This document shows, piece by piece, positions 5,773-22,980 of a stretch of 42,047 nt of DNA (position 1 is its first letter; every line of letters starts with the position of its first letter). Made by a program: the position numbers and the translations under genes. Origin of the DNA: a virus (lineage: Duplodnaviria; Heunggongvirae; Uroviricota; Caudoviricetes); the IMG/VR virus record IMGVR_UViG_2660238591_000003; one strand, 5' to 3'. The notes below the pieces were generated by a model that ran no database searches, was not told the origin of the DNA, and saw nothing but the letters and a program-made list of their open reading frames with translations.

Positions 5773-5800
5773 GTAATAAAAAACCCGCCGAGGCGGGTTA
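5773..5800 (-). terminator. intrinsic terminator (- strand)
   Basis: Stem AACCCGCC/GGCGGGTT (5782-5799) followed on the - strand by TTTTTATT. Confidence 0.6.
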
Positions 5801-5978
5801 CTGATCAAATGTCAGGATTTGAGGGTGAGTTAATGCGTGCTATTTATCTTCATTGCAGCTCTTAATATAGGTTTTGCTTAGAACCACGGTAACGTCGTGA
5901 TTTGTAGCAAGATACAGGCTGCTAAGGAAAAGCCGGTAGGCAATTTTTAGCTTCTCTCGATAGGGGCCTGAAACCTTT

Positions 5979-6329
5979 ATGCCAAAATCAGAAACAACCA
6001 TAAAATTTACTCCAGCTATTTGGAAAGAGTTACTTCCTGTAATCCAGGATAACATACCCGCTAATGACTATGTAGTAAGTAAAAGAGTCAGAACGGGTGA
6101 TTCTCCTGGCGCTATTGGCACAATTCTCGAAATATCTATTACCGTTATCACATCATCACCAGCTTGTATCGCCATTGCATCGATAGCGAGAAAATGGTTA
6201 CAGACCAGATCATCAAAAAAAATAACGGTAACCACTGAAAAAGGTACGATCGAAATACAAAATCTGACATCAAAGGAGCTTTCAGAAGTACTGGAGCAGT
6301 ACAAAATTATAAGTTTTAAAGACGAGTAA
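5979..6329 (+). CDS. hypothetical membrane protein, AT-rich moron (opposite strand to the late operon)
   Basis: 116 aa. Hydrophobic helix AIGTILEISITVITSSPACIAIASIA. Stop is followed by a terminator hairpin. AT-rich by eye. Confidence 0.55.
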   Translation: MPKSETTIKFTPAIWKELLPVIQDNIPANDYVVSKRVRTGDSPGAIGTILEISITVITSSPACIAIASIARKWLQTRSSKKITVTTEKGTIEIQNLTSKELSEVLEQYKIISFKDE

Positions 6330-6333
6330 CTGA

Positions 6334-6360
6334 GCGCCGGTAGTTCCGGCGCCTTTATTA
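6334..6360 (+). terminator. intrinsic terminator (+ strand)
   Basis: Stem GCGCCGG/CCGGCGC followed by CTTTATTAAATT. Confidence 0.6.
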
Positions 6361-16893: not shown

Positions 16894-18147
16894 TTATTTG
16901 TTACGTTTCCAGAATTCGGCGTTGATTTTGTTCAACTCAGCCGGGGACATTGGGCCGCGGGCGCGGTCGCCAGTTGGTTTGCCTGAAGGCGGGGTGATGC
17001 GGTTCTTTGCCTTACTGATCTCGACTGCAGCCTTAAACACCGCATCGACAGTGGCCTTCGGCGCTTTGGCGAAGTCGGAAATGCCAAACGCCTTCAGGCT
17101 GTCGCCTGTGCGCAGCGCCTGGTTGAGTACCTGACGCTTCAGGCCTTTGTCGCCGGCAGGCTGGAAGCCCGGGCAGATGATCTCTGCGTCGCCGATGATG
17201 TTGCGCTTATAGGCCGCATCGCCGGTTACCTTCGCATCCTCTTTCGCGTCTTCGTCACCGGTTTTGGTTTCGTCGTCCAGATCAGCATCGCCAGTTTTGC
17301 CTTCCAGCTTATCGAGTCGAGCAATCAGAGCCTGCGCCCAGGCGGGCGCCTCTTCATCACCGGTTTTCTTTTCCGGATCGGTATCTTCATCGACCGTGGT
17401 CTTCTGGTCTGCTGGCAGCGCGGTAGCCTGTGAAGGCACGTTCATGTTGATGGTTACGCCGGGGATGGAACCCATGCCGTCAGATGGCATGTCCGGCGCT
17501 TCATCGATGAGCTTCGTCAGCGCGTCCTCATCTTTCGTCTTAATGGCCTGAGCCAGTTTTTTCAGCCATGACATTGCAGGCTTCTCCTTTGGTTTTGATG
17601 GGGCCGAATCCCCGATTGCACAGCGGGAGCCCGCCCGGCCCTTATCAACGATGGCCAGATGGTTTCCTGTGATTTCTGTTTGCTTGCCCTTGCCCGGGCC
17701 GATTTGCACGTACTGGGCGTCGTAGCCACAGCTGACCTGGTTTTTACCAGCGTTGACCGCATCGATGCCTTCCTGCCGCTTCACCAGCACATCAGCGATC
17801 AACAGGTCGGTTTTATCGCCGGTGCCGCGGCGGACGTTCTGGATATGGCCATGGGCCAGCTCCGCGAAGTTCGCCGGGTTAACGAAAACGATGTTGCCTT
17901 CGCCGTCTTCCGGGTGATCCAGCGTTACCGCCATGCCCTCGAAGCTCGCCATAGTCTCTGGAGAGAAAACCTCGTCCTCGGTGCGATAGATGACCACCAG
18001 CCCATCTGCGCCAGGCTCAAGGCCGATTTCTTCGGGAAGATAGGTTTGCGTGCCGGTGCGGGCGATCGGGACGTCTTTGCACAGCAGGGAGCCGTCCGCC
18101 AGCTGGTAGCGCGTTTCGCCAAGGCGGGTAATGAAGAAGTATTTCAT
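16894..18147 (-). CDS. head scaffold/protease-like protein (DUF2213-like)
   Basis: 417 aa with an acidic, low-complexity C-terminal half (TGDEDAKEDAK repeats). Confidence 0.6.
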   Translation of the reverse strand: MKYFFITRLGETRYQLADGSLLCKDVPIARTGTQTYLPEEIGLEPGADGLVVIYRTEDEVFSPETMASFEGMAVTLDHPEDGEGNIVFVNPANFAELAHGHIQNVRRGTGDKTDLLIADVLVKRQEGIDAVNAGKNQVSCGYDAQYVQIGPGKGKQTEITGNHLAIVDKGRAGSRCAIGDSAPSKPKEKPAMSWLKKLAQAIKTKDEDALTKLIDEAPDMPSDGMGSIPGVTINMNVPSQATALPADQKTTVDEDTDPEKKTGDEEAPAWAQALIARLDKLEGKTGDADLDDETKTGDEDAKEDAKVTGDAAYKRNIIGDAEIICPGFQPAGDKGLKRQVLNQALRTGDSLKAFGISDFAKAPKATVDAVFKAAVEISKAKNRITPPSGKPTGDRARGPMSPAELNKINAEFWKRNK

Positions 18148-18165
18148 GGGTTACCTGCTGAATTG

Positions 18166-18196
18166 CGGGCAGTAAAAAGGCCGCGCAGTAGCGGCC
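18166..18196 (-). terminator. intrinsic terminator (- strand)
   Basis: Stem GGCCGC/GCGGCC (18179-18196) followed on the - strand by TTTTTACTG. Confidence 0.55.
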
Positions 18197-18314
18197 ACTG
18201 GGGTTTATCTAATGCTTTAGCACGAGCTCTTCACCACTAATTTTCGGCCTTGACACTCTAAATTCGATAGTGAAAACATGAACATTGATTCCCACCACCA
18301 AAAGGAGTTTTGAA

Positions 18315-18512
18315 ATGAGCACTAAAGCAGAATTGTTAGCGAAGATGGATCGCATGGCAGATGAGTGGTCACGCACCACTGGCCTCAACAATGACTATGT
18401 TGAGGGCGAGCGTTACACCAAAATCAAAGACCAACTTGCAGCGCTCGGGGTGAACGCTCGCATTGATGCCGTAGAGGGTAATTCAGCTCAATTCAGGGTT
18501 TATGTAGATTGA
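18315..18512 (+). CDS. hypothetical small protein, moron in the head module (opposite strand)
   Basis: ATG at 18315 with AAGGAG 8 nt upstream; 65 aa (MSTKAELLAKMDRMADEW). Strong terminator immediately downstream. Confidence 0.55.
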   Translation: MSTKAELLAKMDRMADEWSRTTGLNNDYVEGERYTKIKDQLAALGVNARIDAVEGNSAQFRVYVD

Positions 18513-18527
18513 GAAAGCCTCCCTCCC

Positions 18528-18555
18528 AGCCATCCTTGTGATGGCTTTTTTATTT
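18528..18555 (+). terminator. intrinsic terminator (+ strand)
   Basis: Stem AGCCATC/GATGGCT, loop CTTGT, then TTTTTTATTT. Confidence 0.7.
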
Positions 18556-19307
18556 CCTGGGATTTGGCACCTGCACTTCCGGCCAGCATTTGCAGTTCGG
18601 CAGGCACCCGGCGTGCCCGGTCATACCGTCCAGCGTCGGCGGGTTATCCCAGCGCACAAACTTATCTTTCATCCAGCGATGTGAATCGCGCGTTCCGGCC
18701 CCTTCGATGCGCCACCAGTAGCCCTCAGAGCCAATCGACTCAGCGCGCGCCTGGGTGAGCGCTGTCGTGGCCCGGCCGATTTCGGTGCGGGCGATCATCT
18801 TCGCGCGGCTCTCTGCCACGTCGCCGGACTCCATAATCATCCGATAGAGCGCGTCGGGGCGCTCACCGTTTATGACGGCTTCCATTGCGCGCTCCTGGAT
18901 GTCACGAACGCGGTCGGCAGCTTCCAGCGGAAGAGATTTAATCAGCTGCACCTGCGGGATACGATGTCCTGAGCCACGAACCCCACCGGCGTATTGCCGA
19001 CAACATCCCGCAGCCCCTCAGAGATTTCCTGCGACACAGAGCGCCACTGGTTCCACTCCTCCTGCTCAACCTGCAGGAACATGCGTTTGGCTACCCGGTC
19101 GGCCCAGTCGTCAATCAGCAGCGAGTAATCTATCAGCCGGGCGCTAACCTGCTCGGCGCTCGCTTCCGAACCATCGTAGGAGCCAGTTACTATCGCGCCG
19201 CACTGACGCGCTATCTCCTGTAGACTTTTCTGATACTGGCGCTCCGATTTGCGGCGGAGGTTCGGTTTCAGATTCAGCCTCCTCCCATTCTGCTTTGGCA
19301 TCTTCAA
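18550..19307 (-). pseudogene. head morphogenesis protein (Mu F / SPP1 gp7 family), split across two reading frames
   Basis: The N-terminal part (track ORF 18942..19307) and the C-terminal part (18550..18951, with ARTEIGRA and a C-terminal Cys/His cluster) are in different frames and overlap by 10 nt. The N-terminal part also overlaps the portal 3' end. Confidence 0.55.
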
Positions 19308-20622
19308 TATCCTTGTCGGTGATAGAGCCGCCGATACCGATGATGTCGGACAGGTTGCGCAGGTCGTTCAGCGCGGCATGCTGCGGCATACCGATGTCGC
19401 GCACGGCAGTCGCCAGGGCGGTGGCCACGTTGCTGGCCATTGTCGCCCGGTCAGTGTCCGACATCTCCCAGAGCTTGTTGAACTCGAAGGTGAAGTCTTC
19501 CGGCAGGGGCTGTCCGAACAGGGAGCGCCAGGAGATATCCAGCAGCCAGCGGATGTGTCGGCGCAGGCGGCGCTCCTGCAGCGAGTTAACGCGGCTGTAG
19601 TAGTTCTCCAGATCCCCGTCGCCGGTGCTGAATCCGGATGGTGACTGCCCGAACAGGCGCACCAGCGGGATCCCAGTTGCGCCGGATACCTGCTCAGCAA
19701 AGCGCAGGATGACATCAGCGATCCCGGCGAACGAGTAACTGTGGGTCTGGAACTCGTCCGACTTATCCATGATGGTCATGCCTTCTATGGTCTGGAACTC
19801 ACGGATCATGTCCATGTGCTTCATCAGACCATCTTCCAGCGTGCCGCCAGTGGCCAGAATCTTACGCAATCCGTCAATGCTGTAGGTACGCAGGTGCGCC
19901 TTGTGAATCAGCTGTGTAGTGCCGACGGTTGCGGTATCGAACGCCTGAATGCGCTCGTAGATACGCTCGACTACCGACATTCCCCAGCCGTTCTCGGTCT
20001 GCGCCTGCTGGAATGGCAGTGTGTCACCTTCCATGCGGATAATGCGGCTGTGGTGAATCTTCCACGGGGGGATCCCCTGCTGGTTGGTCACCACCTTGTA
20101 GTACTTCGGCTTGCCGAACTCCGGGCCGTAATCGGTCACCAGGTCGTAATAGCTCGGGGTTACCTGCCAGCGGTCGAGGCACATCACCCCCTTGAACTGA
20201 CCCTCTTTGATGCGGTCGAGCTTCAGCGGAGTGGACATGTCCTGCCCTTCCAGCAGCACCACCAGCAGCGCGCCGCCGTACAGCCGGGACCACTTCAGGG
20301 TGTCGTTCAGTCCGTCCCAGATGGCAATGTCATCCCAGAACATCTCAAATTTACCCTTCTGTCCGGGCTCGAGCTTGGAACTGATGTTTATGCCCTTGCG
20401 GGTCATATCATCGGCCATAGCGTCTACACCGGCGCCCACCAAAAACGATGAACGATACGCAAATTCCAGCTGTACGCGGTTACGCGAGATATAGCCAGGC
20501 TGATAGCTCCCACCGCTCTGGATGTTGGATGTATAGCCGCCGAGCTTAGCCGCGAAGTTGTTGTACCCGTCACCAGTCCGGACGGGCTTTTGTGCGCCGC
20601 TCTGGCGTTTCTTTCGGGACAT
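19144..20622 (-). CDS. portal protein
   Basis: 492 aa immediately downstream of the terminase large subunit. Confidence 0.85.
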   Translation of the reverse strand: MSRKKRQSGAQKPVRTGDGYNNFAAKLGGYTSNIQSGGSYQPGYISRNRVQLEFAYRSSFLVGAGVDAMADDMTRKGINISSKLEPGQKGKFEMFWDDIAIWDGLNDTLKWSRLYGGALLVVLLEGQDMSTPLKLDRIKEGQFKGVMCLDRWQVTPSYYDLVTDYGPEFGKPKYYKVVTNQQGIPPWKIHHSRIIRMEGDTLPFQQAQTENGWGMSVVERIYERIQAFDTATVGTTQLIHKAHLRTYSIDGLRKILATGGTLEDGLMKHMDMIREFQTIEGMTIMDKSDEFQTHSYSFAGIADVILRFAEQVSGATGIPLVRLFGQSPSGFSTGDGDLENYYSRVNSLQERRLRRHIRWLLDISWRSLFGQPLPEDFTFEFNKLWEMSDTDRATMASNVATALATAVRDIGMPQHAALNDLRNLSDIIGIGGSITDKDIEDAKAEWEEAESETEPPPQIGAPVSEKSTGDSASVRRDSNWLLRWFGSERRAG

Positions 20623-20634
20623 ATCCCCTCACTA

Positions 20635-21840
20635 TTATTGTTTGCCCAGGGCGGCCCAGACACCGAGATCGCCAACGCTTGTGATGTATCCATCCAGCGA
20701 GTAGCGCACGGCATCCCACAGGTGGTTATGCTTATCCACGACAACCGGCAGCACTTCGCCGGTCATGCGGTCGGTTTTGTAGGAGTAAAGGCGCGCCTCA
20801 TCGACCATGTGCTTACAGCGCTCATGGATGATGATTTCTTCGAACCCTTTCAGGTAGGTAATGCCGTCCTCAACGCTCCCCGGCCATTTGGTAGCGCCGT
20901 CGATGATGAAGCCCTGACGCGAAAGATAACTGATGGTCTCCGGCCGGCTGCAGTCGCCGTGAATGGGCCATTTTCTGGATTCCGGGATGGAGTCATAGAA
21001 CTGCGCCATTTCGTCCAGCTCGACGCCGACGCCGTAGGCTTCGTACTCGATGTACAATCGGGTGCCGATAATGAAGCAACGGACCAGAGTGGATGGGTCG
21101 TTGGCGAAACCGAAGTCAGCCCCATAAAACAGGCGATCGGCTTCTTTCCACAGGTCGTCAGAGAATGCCTCAACCCGGTACTTGCCGGAGAAGATAACGG
21201 CCTCACTGAGCGCCTTCGGCAGCCCCAGCCAGATATGCTCGTAAGCCTCGAAGTCGATACGCTTGCAGTATTCCATCTCGTGCCTGAGCACGTCAGGGAA
21301 GAATGCGTTATCGCAGTAGTTGACGCAGGTAATAATCGCTCCGCCATCAGGGGGATCGGCGCGGTGCCGCTCCATCATGGCGTAGGTCGGGTCGGTAGCT
21401 TCGCGCGGGTTGAACGACACCCACACTTCGGATTTATTGGCGCGAACGGTCGGACCGAGGATGTCCCAGCTATCCTGCGATACGGTTTGCGCTTCCTCTA
21501 CCCAGCATATTTTGATGCCGTGCATCGACTTAATGCTCTGGATGTTGTTGCGCAGACCTTTGAAGGTAAACCGCGTGCCGTTGCTGCCCTCTATCTCGTT
21601 GTTCTTGACCTTGTAGAAGTGCGCCAGGCCAAGCGAGTGGATTTCAGCGTCCAGCAGTGCCAGTACCGAATCGTTGATAGAGTTCTGGAACTCACGAGCG
21701 CACAGGATGATCATTGGCTCGATAGCGCCCAACAATACCAGCGCGCGGGCAATCTCTACCGATTTGCCGCCACCACGACCGCCATACGTCCAGCGCCAGC
21801 GGACAGAGCCTATCGGTGCGTCGTACAGCGTCCCGAGCAC
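20635..21840 (-). CDS. terL: terminase large subunit
   Basis: 401 aa. Walker A-like GGRGGGKS, Walker B-like ICWVEEAQ, and acidic nuclease-type motifs in the C-terminal half. Confidence 0.9.
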
Positions 21841-22719: not shown

Positions 22720-22980
22720 ATGTCAGATGTAGAAAAAAGAATTGCCCATCTTGAGGATTTGGTTGAAGAGTTACAGTTACACAGCCACGCTTCTCGTGTT
22801 GCTATTGCTGTATTATCAACGGCTTTAAACGGAGTTGTGGGGAAAGAAACTCACCTCGGAGATGTTTATTTAGAAGGGGTTTCTAAGGCCGACCCCATCG
22901 AATTCGACATTCCCGCTAAAGATGGATACCTAGAAAAATTAAACGAGAGAGTCGCTGCTCTACTAGGCAGAGCACAATAA
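22720..22980 (+). CDS. hypothetical small protein, moron between terS and the lysis genes
   Basis: 86 aa; AAGGAA RBS 8 nt before the ATG. AT-rich and opposite in orientation to flanking late genes. Confidence 0.55.
   Translation: MSDVEKRIAHLEDLVEELQLHSHASRVAIAVLSTALNGVVGKETHLGDVYLEGVSKADPIEFDIPAKDGYLEKLNERVAALLGRAQ

Follow-up and report, generated by a model that had tools for sequence, protein, structure and literature searches.

The window analysed here is a stretch of 42,047 nucleotides from a tailed virus (IMGVR_UViG_2660238591_000003), a lambdoid prophage which occupies a site between yciI and kch in E. coli, and its head module holds a small gene on the opposite strand, the open reading frame (ORF) of 65 codons at 18315..18512 (+), which is referred to below as ORF65. 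We found that the region around this gene is probably a moron, i.e. a self-contained transcription unit of 353 bp which stands head-on in a late operon controlled by Q-type antitermination and codes for a small protein. The original prediction had proposed an independently expressed moron, possibly active in the lysogen, and at the level of the sequence this reading is supported by the boundaries of the insert, its base composition, the conservation of promoter and terminator, and purifying selection on the ORF. Four of the five criteria of the moron definition quoted in PMC2629481 were tested, and the corresponding features were all found at sequence level: insertion between adjacent genes, a promoter of its own, a terminator of its own and a distinct base composition. 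The architecture is an ordinary, textbook one; the protein is uncharacterised.

An inserted cassette with a protein gene under purifying selection

The cassette occupies positions 18197..18549 (353 bp) and reaches exactly from the stop codon of a Mu-F-like head morphogenesis gene (called F below) to a conserved hairpin preceding a protease/scaffold gene of the DUF2213 type. Its GC content is 46% as compared with 59% in the flanking genes, and similarity to relatives is lost right after the hairpin and regained at the F stop codon. Eleven Klebsiella phages or prophages, MK416007 among them, have F and DUF2213 genes that share ~75% DNA identity with those of the window; here the two genes lie ~50 bp apart, the same hairpin is present and ORF65 is absent; in MK416007 the F stop codon is 2 nt from the hairpin and no gene stands in between. 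Because related phages place F and DUF2213 only ~50 bp apart, the segment 18197-18549 is an insert, and it is compositionally foreign and sharply bounded. Phage EKP1 is 90.6% identical across the head genes to locus L004, a carrier of an ORF65 variant; its slot is filled by ~220 bp of unrelated non-coding DNA (L027 2136-2400) and the alignment of the two breaks directly after the hairpin. A related F/DUF2213 junction is present in 374 of 5,426 complete E. coli genomes, but only five of these 374 carry the cassette, at an identity of at least 99.8%. The culture-collection lysogen NCTC11023 has the cassette at 99.8% identity.

The ORF itself was confirmed as originally described, i.e. as a 65-aa frame on the + strand between the F-like and scaffold genes with an AAGGAG ribosome-binding site. 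This Shine-Dalgarno sequence is located at 18302..18307, 7 nt before the ATG, and is kept as AAAGGAG or AAAAGGG in relatives. A large protein database contains seven variants of ORF65 (71-100% amino acid identity), all exactly 65 aa long, and the window's own sequence occurs in 454 contigs. Every variant that could be placed lies in the same slot and on the opposite strand (loci L003-L011), even where the terminase genes of the loci differ in type. Pairwise ratios of non-synonymous to synonymous change (dN/dS) amount to 0.05-0.20 at a synonymous divergence ranging from 0.2 up to saturation, and differences fall mainly on the third codon position (e.g. 8/4/26 for the three positions in the comparison with L007). 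Because dN/dS is this low, the codon comparison shows ORF65 to be a real protein gene under purifying selection. Absence or disruption of the ORF in all relatives had been named beforehand as an observation that would speak against the prediction, and the seven variants proved to be intact. That the frame is open by chance, in spacer DNA richer in AT, would be compatible with the shortness of the ORF (65 aa) and with a database annotation that offers nothing beyond 'hypothetical protein', but this explanation is refuted by the comparative data: dN/dS remains low at a saturated synonymous divergence, the 7 variants agree in start, stop and length, distant relatives of 25-60% identity share a conserved motif, and the AlphaFold model is confident.

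Other readings of the same DNA were rejected. A longer frame beginning with TTG at 18285 (75 aa) has an extension that is not conserved, and the ribosome-binding site and the ATG (GTG in one lineage) align at 18315. The antisense ORF 18209..18391 (-) is not open in relatives, and a search of 17900-18800 for a small RNA with Rfam returned only a sub-threshold asX2 match (20 bits vs a gathering score of 70). As to its distribution, ORF65 had no match in phage and plasmid collections searched by tblastn and no relative in a scan of GTDB species representatives, and IMG/VR contained only three contigs with a 100% identical ORF65.

Predicted promoter, terminators and proposed late read-through

To follow the conservation of signals, intergenic DNA of eight loci was aligned and significance was determined from 20,000 shuffles. 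The 118 nt of non-coding DNA upstream of ORF65 (18197-18314) are for the most part ~50-64% identical across the eight loci. Its two longest invariant runs are CTTGACA (18249-55) and TGAAAACAT (18271-79), with a permutation p of ~2e-4. The first contains the -35 hexamer TTGACA (6/6 consensus positions) at 18250..18255 (+); this element had been recognised before, but was placed one base off, at 18249-18254. The second is an extended -10 element of the form TG-a-AAACAT at 18271..18279 (+), with a spacer of 18 nt from the -35 hexamer. Both runs are invariant in 8/8 loci, and the spacer and the 5' untranslated region vary. TGa stands before the -10 hexamer AAACAT (18274-79), which retains the critical bases A2 and T6, and the combined pattern of -35 and extended -10 is unique in the window with 0 occurrences expected by chance. 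We regard these elements as a predicted, phylogenetically footprinted promoter of the sigma-70 type. Around 12 nt upstream of the -35 hexamer there is a conserved TCACYACT motif (18231..18238, +), which is 88% invariant as compared with 9-30% in adjacent DNA and is not over-represented elsewhere in the window; it may be a candidate activator or UP-like site.

Downstream of ORF65, the terminator scan returned an intrinsic terminator at 18528..18555 (+). It consists of a stem-loop at 18528-18546 (7-bp stem AGCCATC/GATGGCT, loop CTTGT) followed by the T-tract TTTTTTATTT up to 18555, and this tract shares bases with the F stop codon (TTA, 18550-18552). Across relatives the six inner pairs of the stem (GCCATC/GATGGC) are invariant and the loop is variable, and the outermost pair is A-U, G-U or G-C depending on the lineage. 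On the - strand the hairpin is followed by GGGAGGGAGG and has no U-tract, so late transcription should pass.

Upstream, the cassette had been thought to be bounded by a - strand terminator at 18166-18196. The hairpin with its T-run (18196..18173) is real: the terminator scan gave GGCCGC-N6-GCGGCC at 18196..18179 (-), followed by UUUUUA (TTTTTA, 18178-18173), with a stability of -14.4 kcal/mol (z -2.2), and the 6-bp all-GC stem, the loop of 6 and the U-tract on the - strand have the form of an intrinsic terminator. It is not a boundary element of the cassette, however, since MK416007 has the hairpin and lacks the insert; a hairpin, or a substitute hairpin, is present between F and DUF2213 in all relatives. 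By this comparison the hairpin at 18179-18196 is a backbone element which lies outside the cassette. In locus L019 a different hairpin with a T-run takes its place, which argues that a hairpin at this position is functional in its own right.

The backbone continues into the leader of the DUF2213 gene at 18148..18178 (-), which comprises the U-tract of the hairpin, the invariant TGCCCGCAATTCAGCAGGTAA and the region of the ribosome-binding site, and which the alignment likewise places outside the insert. Over 18148-18196, 76% of the columns are invariant and the mean pairwise identity is 90% (six lineages). The 47-bp stretch made up of hairpin and leader is 87-89% identical in the eleven Klebsiella phages and prophages, above the value of the coding flanks; in Klebsiella and E. 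coli prophages lacking ORF65 it reaches 87-91%, with coding flanks at ~71-77%. That this stretch is kept better than the coding DNA around it points to a conserved element of translation or RNA processing where the DUF2213 gene begins. Within the leader (18150-18178), a stretch of 21 nt, TTACCTGCTGAATTGCGGGCA, is invariant in 8/8 ORF65-bearing loci.

In the mechanism we propose, host sigma-70 RNA polymerase would start near 18286 and produce a transcript of ~270 nt, which would end at the terminator 18528-18555, before F is reached. As no phage activator is required and the unit is directed against the late operon, ORF65 should be expressed in the lysogen; judging from its orientation and promoter type, it would be switched on in the repressed prophage, at a time when late genes are off. 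In the lytic cycle, Q-modified polymerase would pass through both the untranslated spacer of 353 nt and the backbone hairpin, and this read-through would probably dampen ORF65 expression, via collision or antisense RNA. Resistance of Q-modified polymerase to terminators is established for lambda-type Q proteins, and the antitermination gene (Q-type) of this prophage is positioned upstream of its lysis and late genes.

The same arrangement could be read as functional transcription per se, in which a convergent promoter or antisense RNA damps leaky or late transcription across the junction from F to the protease gene and the ORF is incidental. The promoter does face the late operon, and late read-through RNA would be complementary to the ORF65 mRNA. 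We nevertheless consider this explanation very improbable, as the amino acid sequence is under strong purifying selection and the length of 65 codons is kept in all variants, the ribosome-binding site is conserved, the transcript would terminate before overlapping F, and no Rfam family scored above threshold.

Several points weigh against the moron reading. The -10 hexamer is weak, with a 3/6 match to the consensus, and a generic consensus promoter scan reports no promoter for ORF65, because the best -10 (AAACAT) matches at only these three positions. The + strand terminator at 18528-18555 is present and its stem is conserved, but it is only moderately stable (-9.6 kcal/mol, z -1.35), so that the word 'strong' in the original prediction gives way to 'modest'. 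All close homologues reside in the same head-module slot, which is also compatible with a head-linked role or with vertical inheritance. Finally, searches by homology, domain and fold support no particular molecular function.

Product and family of ORF65

The product of ORF65 is an acidic, soluble protein of 7.3 kDa (pI 5.0; grand average of hydropathy -0.57) with neither a signal peptide nor a hydrophobic segment in its sequence; it is predicted to be cytoplasmic, and enzyme-like and DNA-binding features are absent. AlphaFold predicted an alpha-alpha-beta-beta fold when 18 sequences were supplied (predicted local distance difference test 91.0, predicted template modelling score 0.74; the other four models at 79-83), and only a poor model with 7 sequences. 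In the model, helices span residues 3-20 and 28-43, and strands 48-53 and 56-64. The product most likely acts by binding another protein and would serve the lysogen as an accessory factor, in conflicts or for fitness, and not be a component of the virion.

The original prediction could name no match for the ORF and had proposed homology and structure searches. Pfam, PHROGs, NCBIfam and PADLOC searches with ORF65 and 18 family members gave nothing significant (best noise E 0.006 or worse), and comparison of the family with PDB sequence profiles and of the model with known folds returned no match; the homology searches did, however, recover a small unnamed family. An exhaustive hidden Markov model search of 1.84 billion representative proteins yielded only 12 relatives at E <=1e-3, and a profile search of a set of 5.8 billion proteins added few. 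The members derive from Janthinobacterium, Marinomonas, Methylobacter and metagenomes. The distant relatives, of 25-60% identity, share the pattern L..L..MA..W(S/R)...(H/G)LSNDYSEGxRYxE(I/L)...L, which is followed by a beta-hairpin. One such member is situated in a prophage remnant near an nSTAND gene, one directly after a Gp49/HTH_37 toxin-antitoxin (TA) pair on a phage-like contig, one in a conjugative element between TraG and a Phd antitoxin with a type I restriction-modification (R-M) system, and one on a Methylobacter chromosome. By these contexts, this rare and unnamed family of ~65 aa is a cargo of mobile elements, not a head protein.

An accessory or regulatory role in head assembly, in which ORF65 would act with F or the protease/scaffold protein and be kept in the head module for that purpose, has to be weighed against these contexts. 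All close homologues (71-100% identity) lie exactly in the slot, even next to different terminase genes, and a weak PHROG match to an 'internal virion protein' family was obtained (E 0.024). That match is not significant, though, and the gene runs against its neighbours, under a promoter of the host type and with a terminator of its own; it is missing from phages with ~75-90% identical head genes and from 369 of the 374 E. coli genomes in which a related F/DUF2213 junction is present, and its distant homologues are found outside head modules. We therefore hold this role to be quite improbable.

ORF65 could instead be an anti-defence or immunity-type inhibitor of a nuclease-type effector (e.g. 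a HEPN-like one), made early in infection and/or in the lysogen, in the way anti-CRISPRs are produced from the corresponding slot of Mu-like Pseudomonas phages. The protein P0016 fuses an ORF65-like domain to a domain of ~158 aa which otherwise exists alone. Relatives of the latter have faint HEPN matches (E 0.06-0.16, below the Pfam cut-offs), and the 158-aa protein pairs with a 273-aa HEPN_RES_NTD1 protein (28.2 bits vs a cut-off of 27.4). A slot of this kind, flanked by a Mu-F gene and the gene of an S78 prohead protease, is occupied by this two-gene cassette in locus L026 (3150-4477), where it too is in opposite-strand orientation; the head module there is unrelated and of the HK97 type. 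Distant ORF65-like genes adjoin TA, R-M and nSTAND genes, and in Mu-like Pseudomonas phages the anti-CRISPR region sits between gene G and the protease/scaffold gene (PMC3993853). In the boldest version, ORF65 would be the founder of an undescribed family of small, immunity-like inhibitors of nuclease-type effectors (~65 aa, alpha-alpha-beta-beta, LSNDYSEGxRY loop), and the Mu-F/protease junction a general hotspot of conflict genes, which would correspond in enterobacteria to the anti-CRISPR locus of Pseudomonas. We rate both proposals as unlikely. Only one fusion was seen, on a contig of 2.6 kb, the HEPN assignment falls short of the threshold and the corresponding profile has no match among PDB sequences, other ORF65-like genes have no homologous partner alongside, a 158-aa homologue is absent from the window, no aca-type helix-turn-helix (HTH) gene stands beside ORF65, and neither PADLOC, nor PDB sequences, nor folds reveal a similarity to known inhibitors. 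Two auxiliary ideas were accordingly abandoned: a partner gene, as the genes next to the distant ORF65-like ones encode nothing related to the 158-aa or the 273-aa protein and the partner has no homologue in the window, and a HEPN identity of the 158-aa domain, which stayed below threshold with a profile that matched no PDB sequence.

The ORF65-like domain is N-terminal in P0016 (235 aa) and P0017 (143 aa) and C-terminal in P0011 (118 aa); the partner domains of the three proteins match no family, save for the faint HEPN signal among relatives of the P0016 C-domain. The 273-aa/158-aa gene pair also adjoins a PIN_10 gene in Methylobacterium (L025).

Mu-like Pseudomonas phages such as JBD30 and DMS3 share with the present prophage a variable cargo slot immediately upstream of the protease/scaffold gene, in which small acidic proteins devoid of database matches are encoded and the cargo differs between close relatives. 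In contrast to the ORF65 cassette, their anti-CRISPR (Acr) operons run in the direction of the head genes, and their last gene is aca, which codes for an HTH repressor; the hosts and the head-module families differ as well. ORF65 resembles neither the solved Acr proteins nor other characterised ones in sequence or fold. It is the sole gene of its cassette, with no adjacent aca-type gene and no match to an HTH family. As to type II TA systems, there is one gene between promoter and terminator, and distant homologues have no conserved neighbour. By these comparisons ORF65 is outside the curated protein families, the acr-aca operons and the TA pairs.

Related systems, other cargo and neighbouring genes

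The moron concept goes back to work on HK97 and HK022 by Juhala, Hendrix and colleagues, and examples are bor and lom of lambda, gp15 of HK97 and the 'ant moron' of P22. Morons are a main route by which prophages change their hosts (immunity, exclusion, virulence traits), and most small moron proteins are uncharacterised. Like the lambdoid morons, the ORF65 cassette is extra DNA between genes that are adjacent in relatives, has its own promoter, terminator and base composition, and lies inside a Q-antiterminated late operon; a role in morphogenesis is not expected of either. It differs from them in being transcribed against the late operon and in encoding a small cytoplasmic protein unrelated to characterised moron products. 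The case is unusually clean and testable, with a single gene, a footprinted promoter and terminator, natural relatives with and without the cassette, and the lysogen NCTC11023. If ORF65 turns out to be a plain fitness factor, the finding will be a routine improvement of annotation.

Temperate phages and satellites such as P2 and P4 have hotspots of defence and accessory genes. The F/DUF2213 slot shares with these a fixed junction between conserved core genes that takes interchangeable cargo, and an equivalent slot in an unrelated head module holds the HEPN_RES_NTD1 two-gene cassette; unlike them it is situated inside a head-assembly operon, not at the genome periphery, and none of the cargo seen in it matches a known PADLOC defence system. 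The slot contained nothing, a gene of 139-140 aa, a tRNA-like gene, unrelated DNA or ORF65. Judged by this variation, two unrelated types of head module seem to have a recurrent cargo slot at the junction upstream of the protease/scaffold gene, and the F/protease-scaffold junction could be mined for accessory or conflict genes. The 139-140-aa gene, hypothetical and co-oriented, occurs in L017 (906-1325), L018 (899-1318) and L020 (901-1323) and has no Pfam or PADLOC match. The tRNA-like gene of L019 (909-1015, 107 nt) scores 31 bits with the Rfam tRNA model vs a gathering score of 29, was not reported by ARAGORN and is annotated by PGAP as 'tRNA-OTHER'. The EKP1 record (L027, OM284015.1, 'Elizabethkingia phage EKP1', with a Flavobacteriia host as deposited) has a head module with ~90% DNA identity to that of the enterobacterial L004 and ~76% to that of the window, and its host assignment looks doubtful.

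The prophage combines a Rac-like early region, a Q-type antitermination protein and a myovirus structural module of the E217/Pa193 type. Around the slot, the gene order on the - strand is TerL (20635..21840), portal (19144..20622), F, DUF2213, cement protein and major capsid protein. F, the upstream neighbour of the slot in the late operon, extends over 18550..19190 (-; 5' end approximate) and was identified by PF04233 (E 1.5e-13) and phrog_324, whose matches are divided between two ORFs. The downstream neighbour, the head protease/scaffold gene of the DUF2213 (Pa193 gp24) type at 16894..18147 (-), matches PF09979 (E 2e-42) and the 'head maturation protease' family phrog_530 (E 3.5e-54). In a base-by-base comparison with NZ_CP062811 (region 18942-18960), the window has a 1-bp deletion in F near 18955 (CCTGGCGGG -> CCTGCGGG), which splits the gene into the ORFs 18942..19307 and 18550..18951. 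The other four cassette-bearing E. coli genomes are 99.9% identical here, and the matched span exceeds the query by one base, which fits the same 1-bp difference from the window. The frameshift may be an error of sequencing; if it is not, head morphogenesis is knocked out and this copy of the prophage would be defective.

Two further opposite-strand ORFs were noted in the window. In the tail/baseplate module, 5782-6352 is a second opposite-strand cassette of the same design: the ORF 5979..6329 (+, 116 aa), named 'effector-associated constant component EACC1' in RefSeq, has a terminator-like hairpin on the - strand upstream (5799..5782) and a GC-rich hairpin on the + strand downstream (6334-6352). 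Between the small terminase and lysis genes, 22720-22980 (+) contains an ORF of 86 aa, 'hypothetical' in RefSeq and with a weak SlyX-like match (E 0.01, below the cut-off), which may be a third moron.

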